The notes under the pieces were generated by a model. That model saw nothing but the letters and a program-made list of their open reading frames with translations. It searched no databases and had not been told where the DNA came from. From NCBI RefSeq assembly GCF_024502345.1, contig NZ_JALDNN010000001.1: DNA of 64,000 nt. One strand, 5' to 3'. The position numbers and the translations under genes were made by a program. The DNA is from Escherichia coli. GTDB taxonomy: Bacteria; Pseudomonadota; Gammaproteobacteria; Enterobacterales; Enterobacteriaceae. Shown piece after piece: positions 3,306 to 31,160 of this stretch. Within the stretch, counting starts at the first letter, position 1; the number at the start of each line of letters is the position of its first letter.

Positions 3306-3407
3306 GGTGATATGCCTCGTATGAGATAGTGAAAATAGGGGAATCTATTGGGGCCGACTGCGAATATCGCGAGACTGACCGATGGAGCAGTCGGCCCCTT
3401 CATCACC

Positions 3408-4337
3408 TCAAAACAGCTTTTGGATGCGCGTCTTCAACTCGTCGAACCATCCATTGCCGCTTTTGCCACCAGCCGACTTTTGCTCAATGGACTTCACCTG
3501 ATCGAAGATGGGTTTGAAGTCCTCCTTCTTGCCATAACCCAGGATTTGCGCCAGCTCGATCTCCGTGCGCACGGACGACAGCAAGGTGCTGAGCTCCTCG
3601 TTCTGCTTGGCATCGCGCTTGTCAGTCTCGGCCAGCTTTTCAGCTTTTGCCATCGCGGCTTCGGCCCGTAGCACGGGCAGAGGGAGTACAACTTGGGTGA
3701 CCACCAGCGTGTTCAGTGCTCGGGCGAGTTCCGCCTTGGCGTTGTCGATCTTGCCGCTGTCGATGAGCCGTGCGGCCGACTTGATCGCTGCCGGGTACGT
3801 TGCCATCGGCAGGTTGTCGGTTTCGATCACGATTTCGCTGGCAAGATTGGCAACAATGGGCCGTGCCTTTTGCACCTCGCCATCATCCAACAACTCCTGA
3901 GACAACTTGACCGCTTTCTTGACCGATTCCACGTCGGCGTGGATGTCATGGGTGATGACGCTTACATCGACGGGCGCCAAAGCAATTTTTGGCTCACGCG
4001 CCAATACCAGTTCCAGCTTTCCGCTGGCCAGTTCCAGCGCAGCGAGCGCCTCCTTGGTCTTCTTTGCATCAAGGAGGATCAATGCCTCATGGGTCTTGGC
4101 CAGCGCAGTGATTGCATCTTGGGCGAGTTCGGCGCGCTTCTTCGCGGCTTCCCGGGCGACCTTGTCATCTACCTGTGGCAGCGCCGCTTTGGATGCGGCA
4201 GAGGGTGCTGCAGCACCTGGGCTAGAACCTGCCGCCGATTGGGCCAGAGCCGGTCCGCTCAGTCCGACGACGACCGCCAGGGCAAGTGCGGAGAAGATGT
4301 ATTGTGGCTGTTTGATATTCATGATGTTGGACTCCAA
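3408..4337 (-). CDS. YfdX-family periplasmic protein (first copy), signal peptide
   Basis: 309 aa; N-terminal signal-peptide-like hydrophobic segment; paralog of 2418-3305. Confidence 0.7.
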   Translation of the reverse strand: MESNIMNIKQPQYIFSALALAVVVGLSGPALAQSAAGSSPGAAAPSAASKAALPQVDDKVAREAAKKRAELAQDAITALAKTHEALILLDAKKTKEALAALELASGKLELVLAREPKIALAPVDVSVITHDIHADVESVKKAVKLSQELLDDGEVQKARPIVANLASEIVIETDNLPMATYPAAIKSAARLIDSGKIDNAKAELARALNTLVVTQVVLPLPVLRAEAAMAKAEKLAETDKRDAKQNEELSTLLSSVRTEIELAQILGYGKKEDFKPIFDQVKSIEQKSAGGKSGNGWFDELKTRIQKLF

Positions 4338-4896: not shown

Positions 4897-6231
4897 TCAA
4901 GAACAGGCCATGAGCAAGAATAGTCCATGAAGCAATAGCGCATGTCCCATCTCGTGATAGGCCACGGTTTCCCGCTCCTTCGGATTGAGCACACGGTTCT
5001 TCCTTTCCAGGCCGGCCACGATGCGCTCGATGGCGGCGGTGAAGTCTTGCAGCTCCACAGCCTGCGCCTTGCGCCGCGTCGCGTTCAGCGCTGCTTCGTT
5101 CACGAGATTGGCCAGATCAGCGCCGGAAAAGCCGGTGGTCAACGCCGCCACCTGTTCCAGATCTACACCGTGGGCCAGGGTGATCTTCTTGACATGGACC
5201 TTCAGGATATCCAGGCGACCTTTCTTGTCGGGACGGTCCACCAGCACCTGACGGTCGAAGCGACCGGCACGAAGCAAGGCCTGATCGAGGATTTCGGGGC
5301 GGTTGGTGGCGGCGAGGATGATCAGCCCGACCGAGCTGTCGAAGCCATCCATTTCGGTGAGCAACTGGTTCAGCGTCTGCTCACGCTCGTCGTGTCCGCC
5401 GGTCGGTCCTCCGACACCGCGTGCGCGGCCCAAAGCATCCAGCTCATCAATGAAGATGATCGCCGGCGCCTGCCCGCGCGCCTGCTCGAACAGGTCGCGC
5501 ACGCGCGCCGCACCCACGCCGACGAACATCTCGACGAACTCCGAGCCTGAGATGGAAAAGAACGGTACCCCGGCCTCGCCCGCCACGGCCTTGGCCAGCA
5601 GGGTCTTGCCCGTGCCCGGCGGGCCAACCAGCAACACACCTTTCGGGATGCGCGCGCCGAGGCGGCCGTAATCCTGCGGGTTCTTCAGGAAGTCGACGAT
5701 TTCGACCAGCTCGGCCTTGGCCTCATCGACACCCGCGACATCGGCAAAGGTGACGCCGGTGTTCTTCTCCATGAACACCTTGGCGCGGCTCTTGCCGATG
5801 CTCAGGAAGCCGCCCATGCCCTGCTTCTCGGCGAAGCGGCGGAACAGGAAGAACCAGACGCCGAAGAAGGCCACCGCCGGCAGAATCCAGGAGAGCACAT
5901 CACGTAGCCAGGTGCTTTCCACCACCCGCGCGTAGGGCACCTCGTACTTGGACAGCCGCTCGGCCAGGTCGGGTTCGACGCGAGTGGCCACGATGGTGGT
6001 CTTGCCCCGGCTGTCCGGCGATTTCAGGCGCCCGGTGACCGTGCGGTCCGACACCAGCACTTCGGCGACGCGCCCCTCGGCCAGCGCCTTCTCGAATTCG
6101 CTGTAGGGCACGGGCTCGACGGTCTTGGCCGCCTGCCAGTAGTTCTGCAGCGTCAGCAGCAACAGGCCGGCGACGATCCAGTAGCCAATGTTCCATTGAT
6201 CTTTCTTTTCCATGGGCAATGTTCCTCGCAA
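4897..6231 (-). CDS. FtsH-like AAA+ protein, C-terminally truncated (ends at the HEMGH zinc-binding motif; M41 peptidase domain absent)
   Basis: N-terminal TM segment plus AAA module (GPPGTGKT Walker A, DELD Walker B); ORF stops 12 codons after HEMGHA; only 31 bp to next gene; downstream bases AT-richer. Confidence 0.75.
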
Positions 6232-6240
6232 GTCGTGCCG

Positions 6241-7701
6241 CTAGAGAATGGGGGTGAACAGACGGGCCACCCCGTCGCGCAAGCGCATGGCCAGCGGGTG
6301 GGCGCGCAACGCCTTCGCCGATATCTCGCCCGACACATCACGAGCGGCATCAAAAAGGGATGACAGCCGCGTAGACAACGCGGTGTCGTACACCTCCACA
6401 TTGAACTCGAAGTTGAGGCGCAAACTGCGCGCATCCCAATTGGCCGAACCCAGGCAGCACCACGCTCCGTCTACCAGCATCAGCTTGCTGTGGTCGAACG
6501 GGCCAGGCCGTTCGAAGATGCGCACACCGTGCTCCAGCACCTGCCAGTAGTGGGCGCGCGCGGCCCATTGCACCGTGGGATGGTCGCCGTTTGCGGGCGT
6601 CAGCACGTCGATACGCACGCCGCGCAACGCGGCCGTGCTCAGCGCCGCGATCATCGGCTGATCGGGGACGAAGTAAGGTGTCCAGATGCGCACCGAATGC
6701 TTCGCCGCGCTCAAAGCGCCCATGAAGGTCCAGCGCATCCGGTCCAGGGCCTCGTCGGGACCGGCCTCGATGCCGCGCGCCCAACTGGTTCCCGGCTCAT
6801 CAGCCGTTACGGGCGGTTCGCCCCAGAAACCCTCGTTGAGCCGCTCGCCCGTGGTATCGCACCAATCATCGGTGAAGCTCCGCATCAGATGCTCCACCAC
6901 CGGCCCGCGCAGACGAAAGTGCAAATCGTGACAGGCCTGGTCCGGCGCATCGGGCCGCCAGTACGGGCTGAAGATGTTCAATCCGCCGGTGAAACCCGTC
7001 TCGCCATCGATCACCAGCAGCTTGCGGTGATTCCGCAGATGCGCGGCATGCAGGCGCGCGGGAATCAATGTCGGGTTGAACGTCGCCGCCGGAACGCCGG
7101 CGCGCTGCAAGGCGCGGTAGGCGCTGCGGGGCGTCCAGCGGGCATACACGTCGTCGATCAGCACCCGCACTTGCACGCCGCGCTCATGAGCCCGGCGCAG
7201 CGCATCGACGAACTGCGCCCCGATGCCTTGGCTGTCGAAGATGTACGAGGTCAAGGCGACGCTGTACCGCGCCGATTCGATGGCGGCGAGCATGGCCGGG
7301 TAGGCCTGCTCGCCATCGACAAGCGGCTCGATGCGGTTGCCGCCGGTCAGCGACTGGCCGGTGGCGCGTCCCACCAGGTGGGCCAGACCGGCAAGTGGCG
7401 GCGATACAGCCTCGGGTATCGTGGGCGAGAGATCCTGCCGAACAGCAGGATCTGCCCCCGGGAAGAGCCGCCGCGCCCGCCGCTGGTAACGGTTGATGCC
7501 GAACAGCCCATACAGCAGCGAACCGCCCAGCGGCAGCAAGGCGATCAGCAGTACCCACAGCGTGGCCGATCGAGGGTCACGCTTGTAGATGACCGCATGC
7601 CCCGCTGTGGGGATAGCGACCGCCAGCGACACGAGGGTGGCTGCCCATGTCAGCCCATTGGGGTCGGACACGACAGCCTCCCATCGCTCAAGATTCGCCA
7701 T
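6241..7701 (-). CDS. cls: Cardiolipin synthase-like phospholipase D family protein
   Basis: Two HxKxxxxD motifs (HRKLLVID, HSKLMLVD); N-terminal membrane helices; about 487 aa from internal Met (track ORF 6241..7884 overlaps clpK). Confidence 0.8.
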   Translation of the reverse strand: MANLERWEAVVSDPNGLTWAATLVSLAVAIPTAGHAVIYKRDPRSATLWVLLIALLPLGGSLLYGLFGINRYQRRARRLFPGADPAVRQDLSPTIPEAVSPPLAGLAHLVGRATGQSLTGGNRIEPLVDGEQAYPAMLAAIESARYSVALTSYIFDSQGIGAQFVDALRRAHERGVQVRVLIDDVYARWTPRSAYRALQRAGVPAATFNPTLIPARLHAAHLRNHRKLLVIDGETGFTGGLNIFSPYWRPDAPDQACHDLHFRLRGPVVEHLMRSFTDDWCDTTGERLNEGFWGEPPVTADEPGTSWARGIEAGPDEALDRMRWTFMGALSAAKHSVRIWTPYFVPDQPMIAALSTAALRGVRIDVLTPANGDHPTVQWAARAHYWQVLEHGVRIFERPGPFDHSKLMLVDGAWCCLGSANWDARSLRLNFEFNVEVYDTALSTRLSSLFDAARDVSGEISAKALRAHPLAMRLRDGVARLFTPIL

Positions 7702-10537
7702 CCGCTGACTTCTTCTTGCGCGCAGGCTTGCTCGCGTCGCCAGGCGGTGCCTCGGCCACGTCCGCGGCATCGGGCTTTTCAGGCTCAGCCGACTTCGCGG
7801 GTGGCTCCTGGCGCTCGAAGACCACCCGTTCGGCCTTGTCGTCCCAGCGGGCGTTGGCGTGATCACCCTTGCCGATACCGCCACCCAGCATCTCGCGCGC
7901 CAGCGCGGTTTCCAGCTCGCTGCGGATCAGCCGCTTGAGCTCACGCGCGCCGAACTCGGGCTTGTAGCCTTCCTCCGCGAAGTGGTCGATCAAGGTCTGA
8001 TCGAAGGTCAGCGTCACGCCCTGGCTGGCGGCGTTGCGGGCCACACGATCAAGCTGCAGGCCGACGATATGGCGGATTTCCTCCTTGCCCAGCGCATGGA
8101 AGACGATGATCTCGTCGATGCGGTTGATGAACTCGGGGCGGAAGTGTCCGCGCAGCACGTCCATCACCTCGGACTTGGTCTTCTCGTATTCCTCGCCGGC
8201 GGCGCCACCGGCCTTCAGCCGACGCTGGATGATGTCCGAGCCCAGGTTCGAGGTGGCGATGATGATGGTATTGGTGAAATCCACCACCCGGCCCTTGCCG
8301 TCGGTGAGCCGCCCGTCGTCGAACACCTGCAGCAGGATGTTGTAGACGTCGGGGTGCGCTTTTTCGATCTCATCGAGCAGCAACACGCTGTAGGGCTTGC
8401 GACGCACCTTCTCGGTGAGCTGGCCGCCCTCGTCATAGCCCACATAACCCGGAGGCGCGCCCACCAGGCGTGCCACGGCATGGCGTTCCCCGTACTCGGA
8501 CATGTCGATGCGCAGCAGCGCACCTTCATCGCCATAGATGGACTCGGCCAGCGCCTTGGCGAGCTCGGTCTTGCCCACGCCGGTCGGCCCAAGGAACAGG
8601 AAAGTCGCCACCGGCTTGTCGCCTTCGCGCAGGCCCGCGCGCGACAACCGCACGGCATCGGCCACCGCGCGCACCGCTTCGTCCTGGCCCACCAGGCGCT
8701 CATGCAGCCGCTGCTCCAGATGCAGCAGCTTCTCGCGTTCTTCCACCGTCAGCTCGTTGACCGGAATGCCGGTCAGGCGCGAGACGATCTGCGCGACATG
8801 CTCGGCCTTGACTTCGGCGCTGCCCGAGGCGCGCTCGCGTTCCCATTCCTCGACGAGCTGCTTGAGTTCAGTCTCCTTGGCCTCGATGCGCTTGCCCAGC
8901 TCGGCGGCCTTGTCGTACTGCTTGCGCGAGGCCATGTAGTCCTGCTCACGCCGCAACTGGTGCAGTTCGGACTCCAGCTCCTGCACCGCCACCGGGCGAG
9001 CCGTGGCCGACAGCTTCACGCGTGCGGCCGCCTGGTCAAGCAGGTCGATGGCCTTGTCAGGCAAAAAGCGCGCGGTGATGTAGCGGTCCGACAACTCGGC
9101 GGCGGCGATGATCGCATCCTCGGTGATGCTGACCTTGTGGTGCGCCTCGAAGGTGTCGCGCAGGCCGCGCAGGATCATCATGGTCTGCGCTACCGTCGGC
9201 TCGGGCACCATCACCGGCTGGAAACGACGCTCCAGCGCGGCGTCCTTCTCGATGTACTTCTGATACTCGTTGAGCGTGGTGGCGCCGATCAGGTTCAGTT
9301 CGCCGCGCGCCATCATCGGCTTGAACACGTTGGCCACGTCCAGCCCGCCTTCGCCGCCACCCTGGCCTGCACCGACGATGGTGTGCACTTCATCGATGAA
9401 GAGAATCATCTCGCCCTGGTGCTCGGTCACTTCCTTGAGCACCTTCTGCACGCGCTCCTCGAACTCGCCGCGATACTTGGCGCCTGCCACCATGGCGTTG
9501 ATGTTGAGCTCGACCAGACGCTTGTCGCGCAGCGTCTCGGGCACTTCACCGGCGACCATGCGCTGCGCCAGCCCTTCGACAATGGCGGTCTTGCCGACGC
9601 CGGGCTCACCGATCAACACCGGGTTGTTTTTCTTGCGCCGGGCCAGCACCTCGATGGTGGTCTCGATCTCCTGCGCACGGCCGATGACTGGATCGAGTTT
9701 GCCCTCGCGCGCCATCTTGGTGAGGTCGCGCGAGTATTTATCCAGCTCGGGCGTGTTGGTCGGCGTCTCGGCGCGGCCATCCTCGGCCCCTTTGCCGACC
9801 ACCTTGCTTACCTGCTGGCGCAGCGCTTGCGGCGTGAGGCCGTAACGGCGCAGCAGGTTGGCCGCCAAACCTTCGCCTTCCTCAGCGAGCCCGATCAGGA
9901 AATGCTCCGGCCCGACATAAGAGTGGCCGAGTTCGTTGGAGGCCACGAAAGCGCGGCTGAGCGCGTCCTTGACCCGGGGCGACACGCCGACTTCGCCCTC
10001 GAACGGCTTCTCGCCGCGCTTGGCTTCGGATTCGATCTGTCGCTTGAGGTCATCGACCTTGATCTTGAACTGTCCCAGGATGGTCTTCACCACGTCGCTG
10101 TCGGATAGCGCCAGCAGCAGGTGTTCGGTATCGACTTCGGCGCGCCCGAACTCTGCAGCGTGTCGGGCGGCCTCCTGCAATAGGGCCTCGGACTGTTCGC
10201 TGATACGGCTGGCGAGCCCACTGCCGCGACGGCGCGCAGTGCCCGTACCGGCCGGGGCGGGTTCGCCGAACGAGGCATCGACCACCTCGTCGGTATCGGC
10301 CGCCATGGACGGCGAATCGTCACCGATGCGGAAGAAGTCGCTGCCGAGGAAGTCTTCGAACAAGCCGCTGCGCGAGCCAAACAAGGCTTCCAGCGGCGAG
10401 ACGGTGCGCTTTTGCTGGCGCGCCAGTTGGCGATAGTGATCGTCACACAACAGCATGGTGCTGTGGCGACCATTGAGATTGGCTTCCACCCGCACCGTGG
10501 CGGGCTGGCCGCAGACCTGGCATTGTTTTCTGGCCAT
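7688..10537 (-). CDS. clpK: ClpK/ClpG-type Clp AAA+ disaggregase with N-terminal zinc-ribbon-like extension
   Basis: Two AAA modules (GEPGVGKT and GPTGVGKT Walker A), Clp-N region, CQVCGQ...CDDHY N-terminus; AAGGAG RBS 7 nt upstream of chosen ATG; about 949 aa. Confidence 0.9.
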
Positions 10538-14505: not shown

Positions 14506-16000
14506 TCCATCTTCCTATCAATCGAATGAACGCAGTGGTCAGTGGTGCCACCCTGCTTTTTTCCAATCCACAACGCTTTTCCAGCTCCCAGCGCCTAGAC
14601 GTTATGCCTGTCTGTACATCCTTCAGCATCGCTGCAGTCAGGCGACGGATCTGATACTCGCCGACGGACTCGGCATAGCGATCCAGGAAGGTGCAGCAAA
14701 GAGGCAATTGATCGAGACGGTGCTCGACTGATGCCCGATGGGGTAGCTGCTGCAGGAACCAGTTGCGACTCCTGCGCGGAAGGCCCAGGTCTTCTTCGCT
14801 ACCTCTACCAATCCGGATCAGCAGGCGCACCAACCTTATGTCACGCGCTCGCCAGTCGATGTGGCTGTTGTTGCCCTGTCGGCGCTGCCTGACCTGGTTC
14901 GCAACCATCAGCCAGTGTCGGTCATGACGATAGAGCCAGGCGTAACATGCCCCTGCTCCGTCTTGCCTGGCTGCCTTGGCTCCACCGTGATTAGCCAGTG
15001 CTTGCAGCCAAATGGCTCGGTACTGCTGCTTTTGCTCAAACTCAGCAGGGAGCAGCTGCACTGACCGCTCGGAGGCAAGGTCGACCTGGCGAGTCTTCGC
15101 CTCGCTGATCAGCTCGCCAGCATGCTGGCCAGGGCGCAGGCTGGTCCAGACGATCAGATGCTGCAGCGCACTGAATCCCTTGCGATGCTTCCTGAACATC
15201 GCCAACAGCCAAGGTGGAGGCTCTCCGGATGTCAGCAGACCGTTCGCAGCAAGCCAATCCCTTTGATGGGATGCCAGGATCTTCTCCCAGATGACTTCAG
15301 CCCTGACCTGCCGGCCTCGCCTGGCGCCGCACTCTGTAGCCAGGTACCGGTACAGGTTGGTCCAGCGTCCGTAGCCAGGCGATTGCACCTCTTCGAGCGC
15401 CAGCAGCTGCATAGCAGCCTTGGCGAGCCTGATAGCCTCTTCGCCCACGGGACTCACGCGAAGATCACGGGGCAGAAACAGTGGAGAGGCTGTATGAAAC
15501 TCGTGCCGCTGCGCTCGACGGAACGGGATAGGTGAGTTCAGGAGCTGACAGCCATGCTCGGGACAGGCATCTATCCCTTGAATCTGCCAGCTGCGCCGCC
15601 AGTAGGGTTCACCGTAGCGCGCAGCCATATCTTCAAAGCAGATCGGGCAGTAACGCAGCCAATCGGGCCACTTGACCAAGGCCGTCGAGGCCCCAGACAG
15701 ACCAATCGTCGGCCGGTCGGGAGCAAGCATGGCCTGAAAAAGATCGGTACGGCGCTCCGGCGGAATGAAAGGGGCATAGAGCGGGAACAGCGTGTGATTC
15801 AGGATCATGCCTTCCGCATCCAAGCCCGTGTTGTTCGCCAACGCAGTCAGGTGTGTGGGCAGATCGGTGATCGCGGCAACCTTGCTGTCACCGAAAAGCA
15901 TGTGCAGCAAGGTCTTGTGGCTGCCTATCCCCAGATGTACCCGGCACCGGGCAATACCGCTGTAAAGCAGTTCGTCCGGGTAGAGCCTGGGGAAGTACAT
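14498..16000 (-). CDS. tnsD: TnsD/TniQ-family target-site selection protein
   Basis: 500 aa; N-terminal TniQ-like region (YPDELLYSGIARC) and CPICFED...CPEHGC zinc-finger motif. Confidence 0.75.
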
Positions 16001-16001
16001 G

Positions 16002-17612
16002 TCAGCTCGCTCTCAGCAGAGGCCGTAGATCGAGGATCAAGCCAGCCTGCTTGAATCTGTCATAGGCCTCGCTTTCAGGCCCATCGGCATAACGTCGGCG
16101 CAGATCCTCCTCGGATAGGCACCCCCACTCCGTCCGCTTAACTCTGGAAATGCCGGGCCTCTTGGGAGCGTCCTGCGCGAGGTAGGCCGTGGCCTTGTGA
16201 ATCAGGGCCGCCAGCGGGATGTCCGGATTCTCCGCCAACAATTCATCGGCCATGGGAATGGCGATGTCCCTCGGGATTTCCATACCTTCGAGCAGGGCGG
16301 CCAACCGCTTTGCCTTGTCATCAGCCGGAGGGGCCGGTGGTTTAGGTTGGGGGACGCTATCCAGAGAGCGAGTCAGGGTCAGCAACCGTCCCTCGATCTC
16401 TGGCATCAGCAGGTCGTCATATTTGGCGATCAGCTCGGGCCTACCGCTCCGCAAGGCCGCCAGCATCGGATGGACCGGTTTGAACTCGTCCTCGAAAACC
16501 CTGCGCAGCAACAGCGGCTTAATGCACTCGACACCTGTCACTATCGCCCGGATCTGCGCCAGCGCGAACAGCTTGATGACGATGTCCATGACCCCTTGGG
16601 TGAGGTCGTACATCGTAGCCTCCAGTTCATCATCCAGCGGCGCCGCATTTCGCAGCCACTGATACTTCCAAAGCCGCTTCAACAGACGCTTCCAATGCTC
16701 GTCCCGAGGCAACCTATCCCAGCGGATGCTGCCCAACCCGGAGACCCGCCGAGCAGCCCGGAACGTGCGCTGGAAGAACTTGCTGGCCCGGTGGGTGCCG
16801 ACCTGAATGATCGGAACACCGATGGTGTTCACCAGCGACACGAAGAAATTGTGCATTTTTTCGGCACCACCGGAGCGTGCCTCGTTGAGGTTCTGAACCT
16901 CGTCGATGATCAGCACTCCGAGCGTGTGCAGATTGGCCAGCTGGCACATGGATGCCAGCAGACGTTTGGTACCCAGCTTCTTGCGTCCGTGGCTACGGCT
17001 GTAGTGGGTACCCAGGATCTTGTCTACTTCGTTGAAGAAGCTCAGGCACAGCTCATCCAAGTCACCGTCAATTGGGCAGTCGATCTTCAGGTAGACCAGT
17101 TGGGTGATGTCGTAATCAGGGTGATGGAGAGCTTGGGGGTACATGCCCAGAATCCGCTCCAGCGTGCGCGTCTTGCCGCAACCGGAGCAGCCGAACAGCG
17201 ACAGGCTGTTGGCCGTAGAGGAGACACTCTGGTACACCGCCGCATCCAGATCCTCCTCCTCGACACGGCGATAGCCATTCTGCAGGTGCGCATACCAGGC
17301 ACCGCTGGCCGGATTCCGACCGATGTACCCTTGACGGATCATCAGGCTGATCTTGCTCTCCAGCTCCAAGTGATGGCTCAGCGGCTGGAAGAAGCCGTGC
17401 AACAGGCGGGCAATCGCATGTGCCCTGAGCCGACCATCCAGAAGCGCCTCCTGCGGCTCGAAACCGGGAAGCTGCTGCAATAGATCGACCACCTCCTGCA
17501 GATCAGGAATCGGAGGCAATGCGCTGATGAGCGGATTGTCCTGATACTCGGGAAGCTGCTGCTCCTGGTAACGCGCCAGGGGAATGACTCCGCGCTGGAA
17601 TTCTTCAGTCAT
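16002..17612 (-). CDS. tnsC: TnsC AAA+ transposition regulator
   Basis: 536 aa; Walker A GCSGCGKT; Walker B-like IIDEVQN; placed between tnsB and tnsD. Confidence 0.8.
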   Translation of the reverse strand: MTEEFQRGVIPLARYQEQQLPEYQDNPLISALPPIPDLQEVVDLLQQLPGFEPQEALLDGRLRAHAIARLLHGFFQPLSHHLELESKISLMIRQGYIGRNPASGAWYAHLQNGYRRVEEEDLDAAVYQSVSSTANSLSLFGCSGCGKTRTLERILGMYPQALHHPDYDITQLVYLKIDCPIDGDLDELCLSFFNEVDKILGTHYSRSHGRKKLGTKRLLASMCQLANLHTLGVLIIDEVQNLNEARSGGAEKMHNFFVSLVNTIGVPIIQVGTHRASKFFQRTFRAARRVSGLGSIRWDRLPRDEHWKRLLKRLWKYQWLRNAAPLDDELEATMYDLTQGVMDIVIKLFALAQIRAIVTGVECIKPLLLRRVFEDEFKPVHPMLAALRSGRPELIAKYDDLLMPEIEGRLLTLTRSLDSVPQPKPPAPPADDKAKRLAALLEGMEIPRDIAIPMADELLAENPDIPLAALIHKATAYLAQDAPKRPGISRVKRTEWGCLSEEDLRRRYADGPESEAYDRFKQAGLILDLRPLLRAS

Positions 17613-19692
17613 CCTCTTCCTCCTTGAATATCAGGTCACTGAGATCTGGGAAGGCATAATCTTCCTGCTTCTCGCCCCGCAGTGGGATCACCTCGGCTGG
17701 CTTTTCCTGCTGTGCTTTATCCGGTTTGAATGCTGTTTTCTGGCGTTCCTGGCGCTTTTCCTGCTGCTTGTTCTCGCGGATCTGGGTTCCCAGATCCTTC
17801 GTGGTCATACCCGTTTTGAGCGGACTGGCATCCTCTGCCTGGGCAACGATGGACTCGATCTGCTTCAGAAGATTGCCTCTCTCTACCAAAGCTTCCGCCG
17901 CCGCGTTGGTATCGCTACGCCGTTCCTCTCTGGACAGCAGCCAGACATCCCAGAAGGTCATCCCCCTGAAGCGTCGACTGCGGTCGGCAAGATCGCAAAC
18001 CCAGTAGTCCTTGAGACTATTGGACGGCCGCAGGTAGATGTGGTCGGCGCTACGCGGATCGTATGCGACCGTTACCCCTGTCGGCCGGCGCCCCTGGCCT
18101 CGGTGAAACCAACCCTCCCTGATTGCTTCCTGGCAGGTGTAGAAGCAGCCGAACAGTCTGATTCCCAGCTCCGAAACCGTGGCCGACTCATGGGGCAAGA
18201 GATTTATCCGCACCAGCTCCTCGGGCGCAGTACGTAACCGGCCGGTCAAGTTGGCCAAGCCCCAGTTCCACAGCATGACCGGGATGGCTGGCAGATCGCC
18301 CGGCATACCAGAGGTTCTGTCGTATTTGCTCAAGGTATGAAAGTTGTTGTGGTAGAGGATGCCGGCAATGATGATCTGGGTGAACTCGGGCAAGGTCAGA
18401 CTGGCATCAAGTCTGTAGTCGTGGCCACCCCGCTTCCGGCTGGTGGTGTCCTCGACCACACCGCTGGCATAGGGCTTGAAACGCTCCTGCACCGTCCGGA
18501 AATAACGCTCGACGATCCCCTTGGCATCTCCTCGCCTGGCCGGTGCATTCTCGATGCGAACGCCGAAGGCTTGGGAAAATGCTTCCACCTTGGTGCCATT
18601 CAGTTCGCCCTTATCGGCCAGCACCACATCCGGCAAGCCTTTGACCGGCCAGTCGCTGGCATCGATCTCCACGCTATACTGGCGGCAATACTCAACCTTG
18701 TCGGCGACCGTGTTGGCCAATGCCACCATGGCACTGACCCAGGAAGGTCCCTCGAATCCGACGTACATACCAACGACCATGCGGCTGAACACGTCGATCA
18801 CCATGTAAACGACAGGCCTGCCGACGATAAGGCTGCGATCATGTTCTGAAACCAGATAGATATCGGCGATGGTGGCATCGATCTGGTAGCGGTATCCTGG
18901 CCCCAGTGCCTCGGTCGTCGATGTACTGCTGAGCGGTCGGAAGTCCTTGGCAAAATCCACTGCGGACACCCTGCATGGCAAGGTGTCGGTGAAGTGATAT
19001 TCGCGCCCATAGAAGTAACGGAACTGCCCCAATGTAGGCAGTTCGGAGGTCGGCAGCTCCGTCAGAACAGCACGGAGCAGATTCAGCCCGGCGGCGTAGG
19101 CATCAGGAATGGACGGATGTTTTTCCTTGAGCAAACGTTCCTCGATGACCCGGCGAAAAATGCGCTCGATGTCCGGCGTGACATTGCTCCCTTTCCCCTC
19201 CATCACCACTCTGGGCCTGCCCAGCTTGGCCTGGTTCGGCTTTCTGCGCTTGCCACGGGCGCCCGAGTTGACATAGTCCGGCAAGAGGGCATTCCTGCAC
19301 ATGCCTCGCTGCCAGTAGCGCCTCAGTAACCTATACACCGTCTGATTGGTGACACCATGGCGCTCCATGATGCCTCTGACAATGAGCCCTCTGGGGCGCC
19401 GCACGAAAAGCTGGGGGTTGTGCACAAAATCCGCCAGCATTCCCCAAGCTTCATCACGCTTCTGCTGATCAAGGGAACCTTCCTCAACCTCCCGTAGGAC
19501 TGTTTCCTCGAAGGGATCGGCAATGCTCTCCAGCTCCCGCTCCATGATCAGACGCTCCAGCTCTACAATCGATATCGGTTCGGGCAACGCCGTGTCCGAA
19601 TCGATATCGATCCAGATTGCCTGCTCGGTACCGGACCAAAGCAGGCGCTTTCGCAGTTCCCCCATCCGGAACACCTGATTAACGGGCAACAC
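17605..19692 (-). CDS. tnsB: TnsB DDE transposase (retroviral-integrase-like core)
   Basis: 695 aa; N-terminal HTH, central rve-like core (YQIDATIADIY...VIDVFSRM...), similar in size to Tn7 TnsB. Confidence 0.85.
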   Translation of the reverse strand: MLPVNQVFRMGELRKRLLWSGTEQAIWIDIDSDTALPEPISIVELERLIMERELESIADPFEETVLREVEEGSLDQQKRDEAWGMLADFVHNPQLFVRRPRGLIVRGIMERHGVTNQTVYRLLRRYWQRGMCRNALLPDYVNSGARGKRRKPNQAKLGRPRVVMEGKGSNVTPDIERIFRRVIEERLLKEKHPSIPDAYAAGLNLLRAVLTELPTSELPTLGQFRYFYGREYHFTDTLPCRVSAVDFAKDFRPLSSTSTTEALGPGYRYQIDATIADIYLVSEHDRSLIVGRPVVYMVIDVFSRMVVGMYVGFEGPSWVSAMVALANTVADKVEYCRQYSVEIDASDWPVKGLPDVVLADKGELNGTKVEAFSQAFGVRIENAPARRGDAKGIVERYFRTVQERFKPYASGVVEDTTSRKRGGHDYRLDASLTLPEFTQIIIAGILYHNNFHTLSKYDRTSGMPGDLPAIPVMLWNWGLANLTGRLRTAPEELVRINLLPHESATVSELGIRLFGCFYTCQEAIREGWFHRGQGRRPTGVTVAYDPRSADHIYLRPSNSLKDYWVCDLADRSRRFRGMTFWDVWLLSREERRSDTNAAAEALVERGNLLKQIESIVAQAEDASPLKTGMTTKDLGTQIRENKQQEKRQERQKTAFKPDKAQQEKPAEVIPLRGEKQEDYAFPDLSDLIFKEEEDD

Positions 19693-20506
19693 TGCTCAGC
19701 TCCTGATGCATTTGATGAGAGTTGGCAACCAGGTCTTTCGGCTTCAGCTCCCGGTAAGGAGTGTCAAGATCGAAAAGGAAACAGTGCCGGGCCAGCAACT
19801 GGCGTAGCCAATAGAGCGCCTGACCGGCCTCCAGCTGGCCGGAGGTATCCAGTCCTTGGGCAATAGCGGTCAGCTTCCGGTCTGGGTGACGCTGAAACTC
19901 GAGCAGAAACAGCTGCTGGTAATGGGCGAGATCGTCCTGAGCGATGTCGCCTTCAGCATGGGCAGGATAGAGCCATTGGATATTGGCAAATGCCACCTTG
20001 GATACCTCGCGCTCCGTAACGATGACCCAGGGAATACCTTTTTCCTGCCAGTAGCGCCTTTCAAGCTCAAGCCTCTCGATAACTTCAGGCTTCTGCAGGT
20101 CGGTACTGTACTTGGCCTGAATCGCGATGCTCGGGCGCTGAGGATCTTCGAAATCCACCAGAAAGTCGCTGGTCAGTACCTGCGGGGTACCCTTGTAACA
20201 ACCGTGGGGCAGGCCAAGCTCCTCGGCGATGCGCACCGTATCTTCGACCCGCATCGGAAACTGTTCACGGATATCGGTGACATGGGGAGACCGATCCAAG
20301 GTCAGGAAGATGGCCAGTTCAAGATCGGATAGAAGATGGTGTAAACGCCGGGTCTTGCTGCCAGGCAGGCGGTGGGAGCGACCCAGCGAGGACACGTCCC
20401 TTGTGTAGATGAACGGCTTGTAGTCTGATCCCTGGCCTTGACCACGCCCGTCCTTGAGCCTTCTATCGATCTGGGCCTGGGTCAGCCCCTTGAATGTTCC
20501 AGACAT
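19679..20506 (-). CDS. tnsA: TnsA endonuclease
   Basis: 275 aa; blocks shared with Tn7 TnsA as I recall it (QIxRRxKxGRGQG, GRSHR, HHLLSDLELAxFL, DIREQFP, LELERRYWQ). Confidence 0.9.
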   Translation of the reverse strand: MSGTFKGLTQAQIDRRLKDGRGQGQGSDYKPFIYTRDVSSLGRSHRLPGSKTRRLHHLLSDLELAIFLTLDRSPHVTDIREQFPMRVEDTVRIAEELGLPHGCYKGTPQVLTSDFLVDFEDPQRPSIAIQAKYSTDLQKPEVIERLELERRYWQEKGIPWVIVTEREVSKVAFANIQWLYPAHAEGDIAQDDLAHYQQLFLLEFQRHPDRKLTAIAQGLDTSGQLEAGQALYWLRQLLARHCFLFDLDTPYRELKPKDLVANSHQMHQELSSVAR

Positions 20507-20565
20507 GAGAAAGCCTGCCCCCGCTGTGTCGATGACCTCAACATAGCGGATGCAGGCTCAGAATG

Positions 20566-20626
20566 AAACTTTATTTATACGGATGATACTTTATTTATAC
20601 GGATGAACCTTTATTTGCATCCCACA
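20566..20626. repeat. Tn7-like right-end terminal repeats (putative TnsB binding sites) ending in terminal 5'-TGTGGG on the complementary strand
   Basis: Three tandem about 20-bp repeats: ACTTTATTTATACGGATGA (x2) then CCTTTATTTGCATCCCACA; about 120 bp upstream of tnsA start. Confidence 0.75.
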
Positions 20627-20703
20627 CATTTTACTTAAGGCATAAGCGGTAGAGTTGAGTGATAACCCTTCCATAATTTCATTTTCTAACACACTAATTT
20701 AAT

Positions 20704-21069
20704 TTAGTGTGAATTTCCACTTTTAGTCATTATCGCTATCGCTTCATCGATAGTCGGTATTGTAAAGAGAGAATTCTCTCTACAATCCTTGCGAATAACC
20801 TTCCTGTTTTTTTGAACAGAAATATTTTCGCACCAGGCTAATGTCCCGGTGAAATGCTTTTCTTCCATCCTCATATCTAGAAAAGCAAGTCGATCATTAA
20901 GGGATTGCATATCTTCAGTTACAGTAGAGGGACCTGATTCTAACAGTTCCAGACGGCTTTCCACATCAGCAACCTTGCCTTTAACCTGTGAGACGTCTTC
21001 TGCTAACTTTTCATGTCTGTGGATAGTATCAGCAAGTGCTCGTGAGTTTTGGGCGAATATCTCAGCCAT
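20704..21069 (-). CDS. Hypothetical coiled-coil protein (low-GC module)
   Basis: 121-aa ORF, heptad-like charged/hydrophobic pattern; no recognisable motif. Confidence 0.35.
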   Translation of the reverse strand: MAEIFAQNSRALADTIHRHEKLAEDVSQVKGKVADVESRLELLESGPSTVTEDMQSLNDRLAFLDMRMEEKHFTGTLAWCENISVQKNRKVIRKDCRENSLFTIPTIDEAIAIMTKSGNSH

Positions 21070-21216
21070 TTGCGCTAAGGCAGATCCTTTCGCTTCTGGT
21101 GGAGGTGGGTATATATACCTAATGCTTAGTCAACGACAGTATGACCTCATGGAATAACCATTTTTGAAAGTGCTCACCAGCTGCGCTTCGGTCGCTCGAC
21201 ATGACTCAATACAAAC

Positions 21217-21420
21217 CTAGTTGGAGCTATAACTTTCGCCGTAGGAATTAATGACCATTATTTGGCCAGCATCAACAGGCTGGCCATCTAAAGTAACAAG
21301 TCGTTTAGTTGCACGCTCTGGAAAGATAATATCCTTTGACTGCCTATCTTCTTCAATGTCCTTTAGTACCTTAGCCAAGGAGGTTTTCAATGTTCCATGG
21401 GGCGCATACAAAGAGCACAC
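21217..21420 (-). CDS. Hypothetical small protein (possibly a gene fragment)
   Basis: 67-aa ORF only; low-GC context. Confidence 0.2.
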   Translation of the reverse strand: MCSLYAPHGTLKTSLAKVLKDIEEDRQSKDIIFPERATKRLVTLDGQPVDAGQIMVINSYGESYSSN

Positions 21421-21562
21421 GCCGTCAATGCTATTAATTCTGGTAAAGTCTAACTACTCCACCAGTTTATTGATGCTGTAACAGTTCTCCAGATCCAGTC
21501 CAAGTTTCATTTCGACTTCTTTTTCAAATCGTTCATTTCAAAAAACTGTGAATTAACACAGC

Positions 21563-23216
21563 TCACGCATACCTGCTTGAAAACTCGTCCATCGAATTAG
21601 ATACCGTAAAATTCACCTCATCACCCAGTGCTTCAAAATGTGCATAACCACATTTTATTTTGGCATTTTCCTCCGGACGTCGTTCCACCGAGAAAAGCGT
21701 GCTTTTGGTTTCGACAACGAAATAGAGCTTTTCTTTTCCGTCCTTTTCGATCAGCACCGCCCAGTCGGGGTTGTAACCGCCTAATGGGGTATCGATTTTG
21801 AACCAACTAGGGAGTTTGGCGTAAAGTTTGATATCCTCGTTTCGCTCGAAGGCCGAGGCGAATTCCAATTCGATATCAGAGTCGTAAACCACGTGGTCGA
21901 AGACGGACTTCGTCATACCAGCGGTAGTTGGCGACCTTGTCGATAAAAAACAGGCTCAGCACCTTAATGCCCTGTGGGCGCAGGCGCATTTCTTTATCGA
22001 GATGCTCTTCAATGGTTTTGCGGATCTGCAGGCGTTTAAATTCATCCGGATCAACTTCTCCCAAGGCCTGACCCAGTTTCAGAATATCGGGCTTACTGGT
22101 AAAGCTGATGTATTCATTGCCCTGTTCGCAGTAGATGTCATCAATAATGTAGCCGTCATATACATCGCGGCCACCGCTGTACCTGGCATCCAGCAAATCC
22201 GCTCCGCTGGTCACCGTGACTTCCTTGCGCTTAATGCTGCCATTCTTCAGGCGAGCATCAATTTCGATTTTGGCACTGATCGGGCTTTTTTTATTGTTCA
22301 CACTGACCAGCTTGATAAAGGCCTTATTGTGGCCGTCCTTAACCTCAATGCCTGCCACTTCAATCTGCTTAACCAGTTTTTGCTCGTAGGCATCAACTGA
22401 ATCAAGCTTGTAGAGCATATGGTGCTTTTCCACATGGGTAGCTGAATAACGCAGTGTACACATGGGATTAAGCGAGGCGATGGCCTCTTTACTCTTATCT
22501 GTGGTGTCAACACTCTGCGGCTCATCGACAATCACAATTGGGTTGGTTTGCTGGATAAATTCGATCGGCTTGGCACCGGTCATCCGGTCGTGTGCCCGGT
22601 GAATGATGTTGGCTTTGTTCTCTTGCTCCGGGTCGCTAAAGCTTTTCCGGAAGGCATCGATATTGATGACCATGATCTGAATGTCAGGGCTGGTCGCAAA
22701 GTTACGCACATCCGACAGCTTACTGGAATCGTAGGTGAAATAGTCGAAGGCAACGTTTTCGTACAGCTCTTTAAAATGAGTCGCCGTAATTTCCAGTGAC
22801 TTCTGCACTCCTTCTTTAATGGCGATGGACGGCACCACGATAATAAACTTGGTAAAGCCATAGAGCCGGTTCATTTCGAAAACTGTACGCAGGTAAACAT
22901 AGGTTTTACCCGTTCCGGTTTCCATTTCCACGGTTAAGTGAATGCCGTATTTCGAGTCAAATGACTCTGACGGCGCGAGGCCATTTTTCAGCTGTATTTT
23001 GCGGATATTGGCATGGATGTCTTCATCCAGCAGGCGTAGGCGGTTACCAATACCCAGGGTATCTTCCTGAATACCATGAAACAGCGAGCCTTCTTCCCAG
23101 GAATGCAGCGGTGCTACCGTAAAGTTGGTCTGGCAGATTTCCTGGCCGGCGAATACGCCCGTTACTGACTCAATCGCATCACGCTGATAGCCAAGGTGAT
23201 AGCTGTAACTCTTCAA
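21563..23216 (-). pseudogene. res: Type III restriction Res-like SF2 helicase-nuclease, disrupted (frameshift between helicase N-terminal part and C-terminal PD-(D/E)xK nuclease part; helicase domain 2 apparently missing)
   Basis: ORF 21876..23216 has YQRDAI, METGTGKT (Walker A), IVDEPQ (Walker B), SAT motif; ORF 21563..21916 in another frame has GYNPDW...FVVETK nuclease motif; frames overlap 21879-21955 around an A6/T6 tract at 21945-21950. Confidence 0.65.
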
Positions 23217-23700
23217 TGACCCACTTTGCTTGATCCGCTCTGTTTATGCGCTTGTCCGCCAGGCAGATAGCCAGTTGTTCTTTGTCGTGTTGTTTTTCGC
23301 GTACGTTTGAATCCGAATCGCCAGTGCCCTCTGTGCCTTTGTTTTCAGCGTGCACAAAGAAAATTACTAATGGGTAAGGTATCGCCCTGTTGATCAGCTG
23401 ACCAATTCGTTCTGCGCTTTTGGTATTGCTTAATTCCACGTGCAGAAAGGCCAGCTCACCATAGTCGCGCAGGTCGTCACTAAAAGGCGCGATATTGATG
23501 GTGCTGGGCTTTAGGGTGTAGAGCCAACGGATTTTATCAACATCGTCCTTCAGAGCCTTTTTGTCTTTAGCGTCCAGGTCGGCGTGCTCCTGAAACATCT
23601 TTTTGAACAGGGGCTTATTGAGCACACAGCTATTGGGCACGTTCAAGCCTTCCAGAAAGGCTTCGAATTGTGGCAAGCCTAACCTCATATCAGACATCAC
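23179..23700 (-). CDS. Hypothetical protein (possibly DUF4391-like), 38-bp overlap with res-like gene
   Basis: 173-aa ORF co-oriented and overlapping res start; DUF4391 assignment is from memory only. Confidence 0.35.
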   Translation of the reverse strand: MMSDMRLGLPQFEAFLEGLNVPNSCVLNKPLFKKMFQEHADLDAKDKKALKDDVDKIRWLYTLKPSTINIAPFSDDLRDYGELAFLHVELSNTKSAERIGQLINRAIPYPLVIFFVHAENKGTEGTGDSDSNVREKQHDKEQLAICLADKRINRADQAKWVIEELQLSPWLSA

Positions 23701-24403
23701 GCTCTCCTTGACCTTCTGTTCCCTGAGTAACGGCTGTCAATATCAGGTAGGACACCACCATAAAGTCTTCAATGCCCTGACTGGAGGTGGCGGTAAGTAC
23801 AGTACCGCCTTTGGCAAACAGGCTTTCAATGCCTTTTTCTTCGCTCTTCCCGGCAATGCTATCTACAGCGACAGCTAATAGGTGCTGAAAGTGGCTCATA
23901 TCACACCCGTGGCGTGTCATGCGGTTAACTTCGGTGATGGCGGGTTGATCGGGCACTTTGTGCTTAAAGGCTTCACGCTTGAGCAGATCGAGTATCTTTT
24001 TACTTTGGGTGAAGTTCAGCTCAACTACAGTGCTGCCTTCGGCATCAGCGGTCACGTAGATCAGGAAGTAAGGTGCCAGCGGGTAATTATCATCTACCTG
24101 AACCGCTTCTTTACCGCTGCGGATATTCTTCAGGCAGAAGATGACGCCGGGTTTGATGCCATCGGCGACCATATCTTCGTCAATGCTGACGGCGGCATAC
24201 AGGCCTAGCGGTGTTTGCTCCAGCGTTGCGAGACGGGCCTTATCGTTCATGTAGCCTGACAGATCCATGCGGAAGTCATTGAGGGTAAGGTCGGTAATGG
24301 ATACCGGATGGGGCGTGGAGGATATGGTAGCAACCATGATGCGCTGTCTGCCGGACCGCGCCACCAGCCCAGTAGCGACACAGTTGCACGGGAGGCTCTG
24401 CAC
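23690..24403 (-). pseudogene. Hypothetical ORF, probably the 3' portion of a 5'-truncated gene
   Basis: GTG-initiated 237-aa ORF; same frame stays open a further 72 codons upstream (to about 24619) without any ATG/GTG/TTG; upstream part is GC-rich unlike the body. Confidence 0.4.
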
Positions 24404-24835
24404 GGAGCCGGTAAAGTCGCAGGCCCGTGACGGCTTCGGTGAGGCGGTGGGGCGGGTGTTCGATACGGCAGAGTCATCGTCATTCCTGCCTGCGCCGCTG
24501 AAGACGGTGATACGTACCGTGCGTGATGCGGTGGTGTCTGTAGCCCGCGCGGTCTGGGACTGGATCTTCTTCTGAATGAGTAAAAGGTCATCAGCGTTGT
24601 AGTGGATGGCTCTGTTTATTCACAGCCTGGTGGATGATTATTTTAAAGCAGACACAACCTGTCCTGACCAGCAAAAGATATCACCAGTCATAAGCGCGTC
24701 ACCACTGCCGACGTTGCATCCACGCAGTCTTCTCGCGCCAGGCGTTTCGCTACGTATCACGGACATAACCTGTCAGTCTCATCCTTTACAGTAATACCTT
24801 CTTAATTAATCAATTACCAAACACGGAGATAATAC

Positions 24836-25159
24836 ATGTCTCAGACTGAGCGTCGTTATGACCGCCTGTCTGTCCGGCTTTCTCTGATTATCAGCCGTCT
24901 GCTCGCGGGTGAAACGCTGAATATGCGCAAACTGGCCGCTGAGTTTGGCGTCTCGGAGCGTACCCGCCAGCAGTCAGCGGCTGTGGCGTCACAATACACC
25001 AACGTTGCTACAGAGGATGACCAGAACACACATTTTCGCCTGGTGGTCCGGGATACCGACGGCAGGATGCACTGGCGGGCCAGGAACTTTGAGCCGGAGG
25101 CGGGTTACTGGCTGAACCGCTATCTCACCAGCGATGGCATTCGCAGAGCCACAACGTAA
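24836..25159 (+). pseudogene. YfjR-like DeoR/WYL-type HTH regulator, N-terminal fragment (likely disrupted)
   Basis: N-terminus [33 protein letters not shown] is a DeoR-type HTH; remainder lacks the expected continuation; 107 aa versus over 200 expected. Confidence 0.45.
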
Positions 25160-30155: not shown

Positions 30156-30232
30156 TGGCGGAACGGACGGGACTCGAACCCGCGACCCCCTGCGTGACAG
30201 GCAGGTATTCTAACCGACTGAACTACCGCTCC
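30156..30232 (-). tRNA. aspV: tRNA-Asp (GUC)
   Basis: Exact reverse complement of my recalled E. coli tRNA-Asp sequence incl. CCA; adjacent to dnaQ as in K-12. Confidence 0.95.
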
Positions 30233-30364: not shown

Positions 30365-31096
30365 TTATGCTCGCCAGAGGCAGCTTCCGCCTTTCTTCTG
30401 CACCAGATCAAGACGGGCTTCATGTGCTGCAAGCTCTTCATCTGTCGCAAAAACAACGCGTAACTTACTTGCCTGACGTACAATGCGCTGAATTGTTGCT
30501 TCACCTTGTTGCTGTTGTGTCTCTCCTTCCATCGCAAAAGCCATCGACGTTTGACCACCGGTCATCGCCAGATAAACTTCCGCAAGGATCTGGGCATCGA
30601 GTAATGCCCCGTGTAGCGTTCGTTTACTGTTATCTATTTCGTAGCGGGCACATAACGCATCGAGGCTGTTGCGCTTACCAGGAAACATTTTCCTCGCCAC
30701 CGCAAGGCTATCGGTGACCTTACAGAAGGTATTGGTCTTCGGAATATCGCGCTTAAGCAACGAGAACTCGTAGTCCATAAAGCCGATATCGAACGCTGCG
30801 TTATGGATCACCAACTCCGCGCCGCGGATATAGTCCATGAACTCATCGGCTACTTCGGCAAACGTGGGCTTATCGAGCAAAAATTCATCGGCAATACCAT
30901 GTACGCCAAAGGCTTCCGGATCCACCAGCCGATCGGGTTTGAGATAAACATGGAAGTTATTGCCCGTCAGGCGACGGTTCACCACTTCAACGGCACCAAT
31001 CTCAATGATCTTGTGGCCTTCATAGTGCGCACCAATCTGGTTCATACCGGTGGTTTCGGTATCGAGAACGATCTGGCGTGTAATTGCAGTGCTCAT
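30365..31096 (-). CDS. dnaQ: DNA polymerase III epsilon subunit (3'-5' proofreading exonuclease)
   Basis: [20 protein letters not shown]-terminus, 243 aa. Confidence 0.97.
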
Positions 31097-31160
31097 AGCG
31101 GTCATTTATGTCAGACTTGTCGTTTTACAGTTCGATTCAATTACAGGAAGTCTACCAGAG

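Follow-up and report, generated by a model that had tools for sequence, protein, structure and literature searches.

The window, a 64,000-nucleotide stretch of an Escherichia coli contig (NZ_JALDNN010000001.1), carries on its minus strand a series of overlapping open reading frames (ORFs), among them one resembling the Res subunit of type III restriction-modification (R-M) enzymes (Table 1). Their location is the genomic island at aspV (tRNA-Asp) in the E. coli chromosome, where they directly adjoin a Tn7-like element at its tnsA end. The cassette was rejected as a cargo of this element, the terminal repeats of which (positions 20563-20622) are located between tnsA and the cassette. The flanks of the locus are 99.9-100% identical to those of the corresponding region of E. 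coli ABWA45. At the DNA level, each of these ORFs shares 99.9-100% identity with a part of a longer annotated ABWA45 gene, so the features noted here are not due to chance. The hypothetical gene downstream of Res is outside the conserved cassette in other taxa.

Table 1 Features of the locus and their counterparts in E. coli ABWA45 (L001, ABWA45 cassette locus)
Feature	Position in the window	Strand	Evidence and remarks
Hypothetical gene, 121 aa, downstream of Res	20704..21069	-	Unchanged in ABWA45
Res fragment 2, C-terminal endonuclease domain, ~codons 897-1012	21563..21911	-	PADLOC REase_III, profile 868-986/989; Pfam RE_endonuc on identical product in contig L005
Res-like ORF, 446 aa	21876-23216	-	TTG 'start' is DUF4391 sequence; native Res start gone
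J4, deletion junction, microhomology GAAG	21908..21911		1372 bp absent; window 21908/21911 = L001 10772/12145
Res fragment 1, codons 13-439, GTGKT and DEPQ motifs, without native start codon	21908..23189	-	99.9% identical to L001 9491-10772; PADLOC REase_III 9e-150, profile 6-420/989
Truncated DUF4391 gene, native ATG at 23697, codons 1-170/284 (N-terminal alpha/beta domain)	23179..23697	-	100% identical to L001 6608-7117; Pfam PF14335 3e-40
J3, deletion junction, microhomology TA	23188..23189		2373 bp absent; window 23188/23189 = L001 7117/9491
Helicase remnant, codons 885-1088 and stop, all ATPase motifs lost	23690..24304	-	100% identity to L001 6001-6615
J2, deletion junction, microhomology GTA	24302..24304		4476 bp absent; window 24302/24304 = L001 1524/6001 (blastn)
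GTPase-family (YeeP-like) island gene, 3' remnant, last 91 codons	24302..24575	+	100% identical to L001 1251-1524, annotated GTPase family protein; GC 0.60
Chimeric ORF across J1, 107 aa	24836..25159	+	WYL-domain regulator 5' end joined to DUF905 gene 3' part; ABWA45 annotation
J1, deletion just upstream of the cassette	24961-24965		2261 bp absent; window 24965/24961 = ABWA45 4159290/4157028 (blastn)

In ABWA45, the intact gene order is SNF2-like helicase (1088 aa), DUF4391 protein (284 aa), type III Mod (646 aa) and type III Res (1012 aa). The product of mod (L001 positions 7513-9453) matched the PADLOC model MTase_III (4e-216) and Pfam N6_N4_Mtase and contains the DPPY motif at residue 121. 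The res gene starts one base after mod and encodes a protein of ~1000 aa that has ResIII helicase motifs and, at the C-terminus, an RE_endonuc domain (PADLOC REase_III, E=0). The helicase, annotated as 'helicase-related protein', matched PADLOC C3a139 'HKD+Snf2' (2e-132, profile positions 145-925/948) and, more weakly, the DrmD, BrxH and HmaA models; Pfam SNF2-rel, ResIII and Helicase_C domains were found at aa 229-806. The intact DUF4391 protein consists of an N-terminal alpha/beta domain, which gave a weak restriction-endonuclease-like fold signal, and a C-terminal coiled coil.

The intact cassette was found in 23 of the 5426 complete E. coli genomes. The order helicase-DUF4391-Mod-Res recurs in Acinetobacter and Cellvibrio and in loci from metagenomes, where the DUF4391 identities are 25-31%. 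Around the DUF4391 homologues examined (L013-L020), Mod is encoded downstream in all seven informative loci and an SNF2-like helicase upstream in six of them. The homologues thus do have conserved neighbours and are not single genes, and the parent of the window locus is a conserved four-gene unit.

Comparison with ABWA45 (blastn) showed three microhomology-flanked deletions of 4476, 2373 and 1372 bp within the cassette (J2, J3 and J4), separating collinear blocks of 99.9-100% identity, in which only 0-2 substitutions relative to ABWA45 were seen. The sequence missing at J2 comprises the 5' part of the GTPase gene, a group II intron RT fragment, a small HTH gene and helicase codons 1-884. DUF4391 codons 171-284, the complete mod gene and Res codons 1-12 are missing at J3, and Res codons 440-896, which include the second helicase lobe, at J4, where the frame is also shifted. 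Together with J1, the microhomologies measure 2-5 bp and all four deletions fall within ~12 kb of ancestral sequence. The DUF905 part of the chimeric ORF at J1 is supported by a Pfam match on an identical product. At least 23 public contigs, derived from independent isolates and metagenomes in Logan, ENA and NCBI, carry the scarred allele with the same junctions; one of them, 10.5 kb long, is 99.98% identical to window positions 28697-18179. The same architecture was absent from all 5426 complete RefSeq E. coli genomes.

The first-pass annotation described a 38-nt overlap between the Res-like ORF and a 173-aa ORF (23179-23700, minus strand) and took it as a sign of translational coupling. The overlap is present, but it is the scar of J3, at which Res codon 13 follows DUF4391 codon 170 in a different frame. 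The DUF4391 reading frame has 173 aa from GTG and 172 aa from its native ATG; the last two codons are aberrant and, like the stop, come from Res sequence. Between the DUF4391 start and the helicase stop there is an 8-nt overlap, in the window as in the intact cassette. The PF14335 match covers model positions 1-131 of 232, the C-terminal helical half being deleted, and structure prediction suggests that the N-terminal domain folds alone (pLDDT 91.8). PADLOC and NCBIfam searches of the window ORFs gave no match for the DUF4391 fragment, and neither did a search of PDB sequences with the DUF4391 profile. The truncated product is identical to RefSeq WP_249440331.1 (172 aa), which is entered as an ordinary protein with no pseudogene label. 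The truncation of this ORF (170 of 284 codons) had escaped the earlier description, and so had the internal frameshifting deletion in Res; the two Res fragments are in different reading frames.

Similarly, the next ORF upstream (23690-24403, minus strand, 237 aa) was rightly described as truncated at its 5' end by a deletion. Its frame is open up to 24619 (309 codons), the first 72 codons include no ATG, GTG or TTG, and the extension is indeed GC-rich (0.60 at 24200-24599 vs 0.49-0.51 in the body). The true junction is, however, J2, which corresponds to codon 34 of the 237-aa ORF and not to its GTG. The GC-rich start-less extension and the first 33 codons are antisense to the GTPase remnant. 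The body of this ORF is the tail of the SNF2-like helicase, a fourth member of the parent cassette that was not recognized before. The Walker A/B ATPase core and Helicase_C, which occupy residues 229-806 of the intact protein, are not present in the remnant; it had no Pfam match and matched only weakly (PADLOC, E = 0.001) the C-terminus of the model found with the intact helicase.

The earlier proposal of a type III-like system that has lost its Mod partner proved correct, since ABWA45 encodes the 646-aa Mod at the place where the window has the 2-bp junction J3. No [DNS]PP[YFW] motif occurs in the six frames of 20700-24835, and F.G.G gave only two chance matches there, one in a 45-codon open frame and the other in the antisense-GTPase part of the extension. 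A Pfam search of the extended 309-codon frame detected no methyltransferase domain either.

Judging from these sequence comparisons, we consider the region to be, with a probability of about 0.95, a non-functional, deletion-scarred remnant of a minus-strand operon of four genes encoding an SNF2-like helicase, a DUF4391 protein, and type III Mod and Res. Illegitimate deletions took away the promoter-proximal region and codons 1-884 of the helicase gene, the coiled-coil domain at the C-terminus of DUF4391, all of mod, and from Res both the start codon and the second helicase lobe. In type III R-M, sequence recognition and host protection depend on Mod, and Res cuts only in the presence of Mod and with an intact ATPase, as in EcoP15I-type enzymes. 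With Mod absent and the ATPase of Res broken, the locus would be able neither to methylate nor to restrict DNA, and has most probably lost its function. It represents one more decayed R-M locus in an E. coli genomic island. The opposite direction of change, with the ABWA45 arrangement arising through insertions into a shorter ancestor resembling the scarred locus, is very unlikely, since the ORFs seen here are pieces of conserved domains that are out of frame.

It is less clear how the scars arose, a question which concerns their origin only and not the identity of the locus. The four collinear deletions might have resulted from a single complex event, for instance serial template switching or the repair of several breaks through microhomology, possibly triggered by self-restriction. 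Their short microhomologies, their clustering and the few substitutions in the retained blocks would fit such an event. Nevertheless, we regard it as unlikely in comparison with stepwise decay. The metagenome contig L006 has J1-J3 and yet continues unbroken across the J4 site, which would point to two or more steps; as four SNPs are clustered within 48 nt around this site and a chimeric assembly is possible, this is taken only as a weak hint on the order of the deletions. Moreover, ABWA45 itself has an independent 1556-bp deletion in tnsC/tnsD, which shows this island to be simply prone to deletions.

It is very improbable that the N-terminal domain of the truncated DUF4391 protein is kept for a residual role, e.g. 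as a decoy or regulator. The native ATG opens an unbroken frame, the deletion lies close to the domain boundary (residue ~170), the domain is predicted to fold alone and the allele is present across many samples. However, the native promoter region and the upstream gene are deleted, the near-100% identity of the allele fits its clonal inheritance, and none of the homologues examined occurs without an adjoining Mod. Still less credible is the earlier suggestion that the upstream, 173-aa and Res-like ORFs form a functional non-canonical defence module, the first gene of which was clipped on insertion. Although the ORFs are co-oriented and overlapping, and the predicted N-terminal domain of DUF4391 has survived in full, all three are pieces of longer genes which are intact in relatives at 100% nucleotide identity. 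The Res ORF has neither a start codon nor the second helicase lobe and is frameshifted, the helicase lacks its whole ATPase core, and Mod is present in 7/7 informative homologous loci. The clipping of the first gene is accounted for by J2 instead of insertion. That the deletions are assembly artefacts of one genome, as their absence from the complete genomes might suggest, has practically no probability, because the exact truncated protein occurs on at least 23 independent contigs with identical junctions.

The parent of this deletion-scarred remnant resembles the type III R-M systems of the EcoP15I, EcoP1I and StyLTI type in the mod-res pair, the N6_N4_Mtase domain with DPPY and the RE_endonuc domain. 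In contrast, the window locus is not a working member of this class: it has no Mod, and its Res lacks a start and part of its interior, with no full-length single-frame copy. Its type III ancestry is apparent from fragments that are orthologous to the intact mod-res pair. Classical type III systems do not include the SNF2-like helicase and DUF4391 genes conserved upstream in the parent.

The intact helicase matches the model of the HKD+Snf2 helicases of Hma and BREX-related ('BR') systems and is likewise paired with an N6-adenine methyltransferase (PADLOC PDLC01075; PMC11232893; PMC12839542). However, the first 145 profile positions, corresponding to the HKD part, are unmatched by the intact helicase, and the window keeps only its last 204 residues. 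In Hma/BR systems, a DUF499 ATPase (HmaC) and, in BR type 2, also DUF3780 are found beside the helicase and methylase (PMC12839542), whereas the partners in the parent cassette are DUF4391 and type III Mod/Res. Neither a DUF499-type ATPase nor DUF3780 was annotated in ABWA45 or called in the homologous loci L013, L014, L018 and L019. The SNF2-family ATPase core is also shared with DrmD of DISARM (NCBIfam DISARM_DrmD 1e-48; PADLOC DrmD 1e-40), but the intact helicase scored 166 bits, very far short of the curated cut-off of 610 bits. DrmA, DrmB (DUF1998) and DrmC are absent from the annotated ABWA45 neighbourhood.

Literature searches (DUF4391, PF14335, type III with SNF2) yielded no description of the cassette or of its two accessory genes, helicase and DUF4391, which appear to be uncharacterised. 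We infer that in the intact system their products act together with Mod and Res. A more far-reaching proposal, to which we give somewhat less than even odds, is that the parent represents a distinct four-component derivative of type III R-M systems, in which the SNF2-like translocase and DUF4391 are obligate partners of Mod/Res.

In annotation, the genes of this locus are best entered as pseudogenes and not as one DUF4391 protein with two 'Res' ORFs. The locus also illustrates that deletion scars can take the form of overlapping ORFs or of extensions lacking a start, and such features should not be mistaken for translational coupling. If the four-component proposal is true, the window would be a natural multi-knockout of that system. 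The intact helicase-DUF4391-Mod-Res cassette is widespread in Proteobacteria and may merit testing in its own right.

The ORFs studied here lie on the minus strand between the genes of a genomic island which follows aspV (CbtA/CbeA, RadC, antirestriction and DUF932 genes) and a Tn7-like element bearing the clpK heat-resistance locus. They are best explained as the dead remnant of an operon of an SNF2-like helicase, a DUF4391 protein and type III Mod and Res, and we put the probability of this reading at about 95%. A megablast search of 5426 complete E. coli genomes yielded three with 99.9% identity whose corresponding DNA is dispersed across 7.6 kb, versus 3.8 kb in the window. In strain ABWA45, which carries the intact cassette, the annotated order is a small HTH gene, a helicase-related protein (1088 aa), a DUF4391 protein (284 aa) whose start overlaps the helicase stop, a site-specific DNA methyltransferase (646 aa), a type III R-M endonuclease (1012 aa), a 121-aa hypothetical gene and tnsA. 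Pairwise blastn of the two strains gave collinear blocks of 99.9-100% identity with sharp breakpoints, which define four deletion junctions, J1 to J4.

Features of the window and profile matches of the intact ABWA45 genes
Feature	Position	Microhomology or overlap	Deleted	Remarks
dnaQ	30365-31105			E. coli chromosome segment
tRNA-Asp (aspV)	30156-30232
J1	24961-24965	5 bp	2261 bp	Island genes lost; WYL::DUF905 chimeric ORF (24836-25159) formed
J2	24302-24304	GTA	4476 bp	5' two-thirds of GTPase gene, group II intron RT fragment, HTH gene and helicase codons 1-884 lost
Upstream ORF (-)	23690-24403
173-aa ORF (-)	23179-23700
J3	23188-23189	TA	2373 bp	DUF4391 codons 171-284, whole mod and Res codons 1-12 lost
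Res-like ORF (-)	21876-23216			446 aa; REase_III profile 6-420 of 989
J4	21908-21911	GAAG	1372 bp	Res codons 440-896 lost; frame shifted
Res C-terminal piece	21563-21916			117-aa ORF; REase_III profile 868-986
tnsA	19679-20506			Tn7-like element; followed by tnsB and tnsC
ABWA45 helicase				PADLOC 'HKD+Snf2' 2e-132; Pfam SNF2-rel, ResIII, Helicase_C
ABWA45 Mod				PADLOC MTase_III 4e-216; Pfam N6_N4_Mtase; DPPY at residue 121
ABWA45 Res				PADLOC REase_III E=0

The first-pass annotation had proposed that a Mod partner was lost and that a deletion junction truncates the upstream ORF at its 5' end. Both proposals were right: the whole mod lies inside the J3 deletion and the upstream ORF is cut at J2. 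A six-frame scan of 20700-24835 found no [DNS]PP[YFW] motif and F.G.G only twice, both by chance. The frame of the upstream ORF is open to 24619, its first 72 codons contain no ATG, GTG or TTG, and GC content is 0.60 at 24200-24599 versus about 0.50 in the body. According to the deletion map, what survives of the GTPase gene is its 3' end (24302-24575, + strand); read in antisense, it supplies this GC-rich extension, which is joined by chance and in frame to helicase codon 885. No Pfam domain was found in the extended frame, and its sole PADLOC match was a marginal one to the C-terminus of the 'HKD+Snf2' helicase model. The 173-aa ORF is DUF4391 by Pfam, covering only model positions 1-131 of 232, and the Res-like gene is broken. 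Among the genes lost at J1 are those for IrmA, a YfjS/YafY lipoprotein and a hypothetical protein; in the 107-aa chimera (+ strand), a WYL-domain regulator gene contributes the start and a DUF905 gene the end. The 67-aa ORF 21217-21420 (-), located between Res and the 121-aa gene and also present in ABWA45, matches positions 29-93 of the 719-residue PADLOC candidate PDC-S46 (E = 2e-18) and is probably a fragment of another decayed defence gene.

In type III R-M systems, as established for EcoP15I, recognition and protection come from Mod, and Res requires both Mod and a complete ATPase. At this locus Mod is gone, Res is frameshifted and has neither its start nor its second helicase lobe, the helicase is cut to 19% of its full length, and the native upstream region is deleted. 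The alternative of a functional non-canonical three-gene module fails: all three ORFs are fragments of longer genes. Translational coupling had been suggested by the 38-nt overlap of the 173-aa and Res-like ORFs, which a mechanical ORF list reproduced. The coupling reading does not hold: this overlap is a product of the J3 fusion, since the DUF4391 frame enters Res by two codons before it terminates, and DUF4391 sequence provides the nearest TTG ahead of the Res fragment. A single overlap is native, that of 8 nt between helicase stop and DUF4391 start (23690-23697), also found in Acinetobacter and Cellvibrio.

An assembly artefact was excluded: at least 23 contigs of independent origin, isolates as well as metagenomes, encode precisely the same truncated protein (172 aa, RefSeq WP_249440331.1), and a 10.5-kb Logan contig, 99.98% identical to window 28697-18179, contains all four junctions. 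Metagenome contig L006 (ENA ERZ19693311 k141_10317, positions 5509-7016) has J1-J3 and reads through an undeleted J4 site, a hint that the deletion within Res was the last to occur. A cluster of four SNPs within 48 nt surrounds this site, and the contig may represent a genuine intermediate allele or else a chimeric assembly.

The DUF4391 family comprises 943 representatives at 50% clustering. Neighbourhoods of homologues with 25-75% identity were inspected in Acinetobacter variabilis, Cellvibrio and several metagenomic loci. A type III Mod was directly downstream of DUF4391 in all seven informative loci, followed by Res wherever the contig was long enough, and an SNF2-like helicase of the same PADLOC family was directly upstream in six of the seven. 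The intact cassette is present in 23 of the 5426 E. coli genomes (three with IS insertions). The parent is therefore a conserved four-gene cassette and not a chance neighbourhood. GmrSD_N, Fic and AIPR defence genes are sometimes inserted; in the variant cassette of L018 (ENA ERZ19529257 scaffold_690), GmrSD_N (DUF262), Fic and AIPR are interleaved with helicase-DUF4391-Mod-Res. In a second variant, L020 (ENA ERZ27309107 k141_530250), a 469-aa DUF4391 protein directly follows a CBASS pair (SAVED-HNH and CD-NTase) with no separate helicase.

As type III components, the parent Mod and Res are ordinary. The parent helicase groups with the HKD/Snf2 helicases of Hma and 'BREX-related' systems (PMC11232893; PMC12839542), but their defining partners, DUF499 ATPase and DUF3780, are absent from the ABWA45 neighbourhood, and the helicase leaves the HKD portion of the PADLOC profile unmatched. 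Helicase residues 1-140 (3349-3770 of the ABWA45 reference segment), outside the profile coverage and deleted in the window, contain an H-L-G...SGSATLS stretch resembling a degenerate PLD/HKD motif; this N-terminus may be an inactivated nuclease domain. DISARM was excluded, with DrmD scoring far below cut-off and DrmA, DrmB and DrmC absent.

The confident AlphaFold2 model of DUF4391 (pLDDT 93.2) consists of an N-terminal alpha/beta domain (1-170), to which the window remnant corresponds almost exactly, and a C-terminal three-helix coiled coil (177-283). PDB searches with the full model returned coiled-coil matches only. No canonical PD-(D/E)xK motif arises from the near-invariant residues (K32, K33, W58, P64, Y79, E81, R97, P107-Y108-P109, K149, R150), and a degenerate REase-like fold of the N-terminal domain is only a lead. 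A proposed role for DUF4391 is to link the SNF2 translocase with Mod/Res as an adaptor. Neither DUF4391 nor PF14335 is discussed in this context in the non-subscription literature that was searched.

Window 1-20628 belongs to the Tn7-like element, with tnsABC and downstream genes, and its clpK/sHSP heat-resistance locus is 99.8% identical to that of ABWA45. At the tnsA-proximal end (20563-20628), three tandem 20-bp repeats similar to ATGAAACTTTATTTATACGG, likely TnsB sites, precede the terminal TGT. The restriction cassette is not part of the element; it lies about 75 bp past the stop of the 121-aa ORF. ABWA45 lacks 1556 bp (window 15414-16969; the tnsC 3' end and the 5' end of the next gene, tnsC/tnsD) and its tnsA is frameshifted relative to the window. 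Deletions are thus common in the island, and the window holds the more intact copy of the transposition genes and the more decayed restriction cassette. Only the uncharacterised parent cassette is mildly novel, and to it the window adds nothing beyond a natural knockout.
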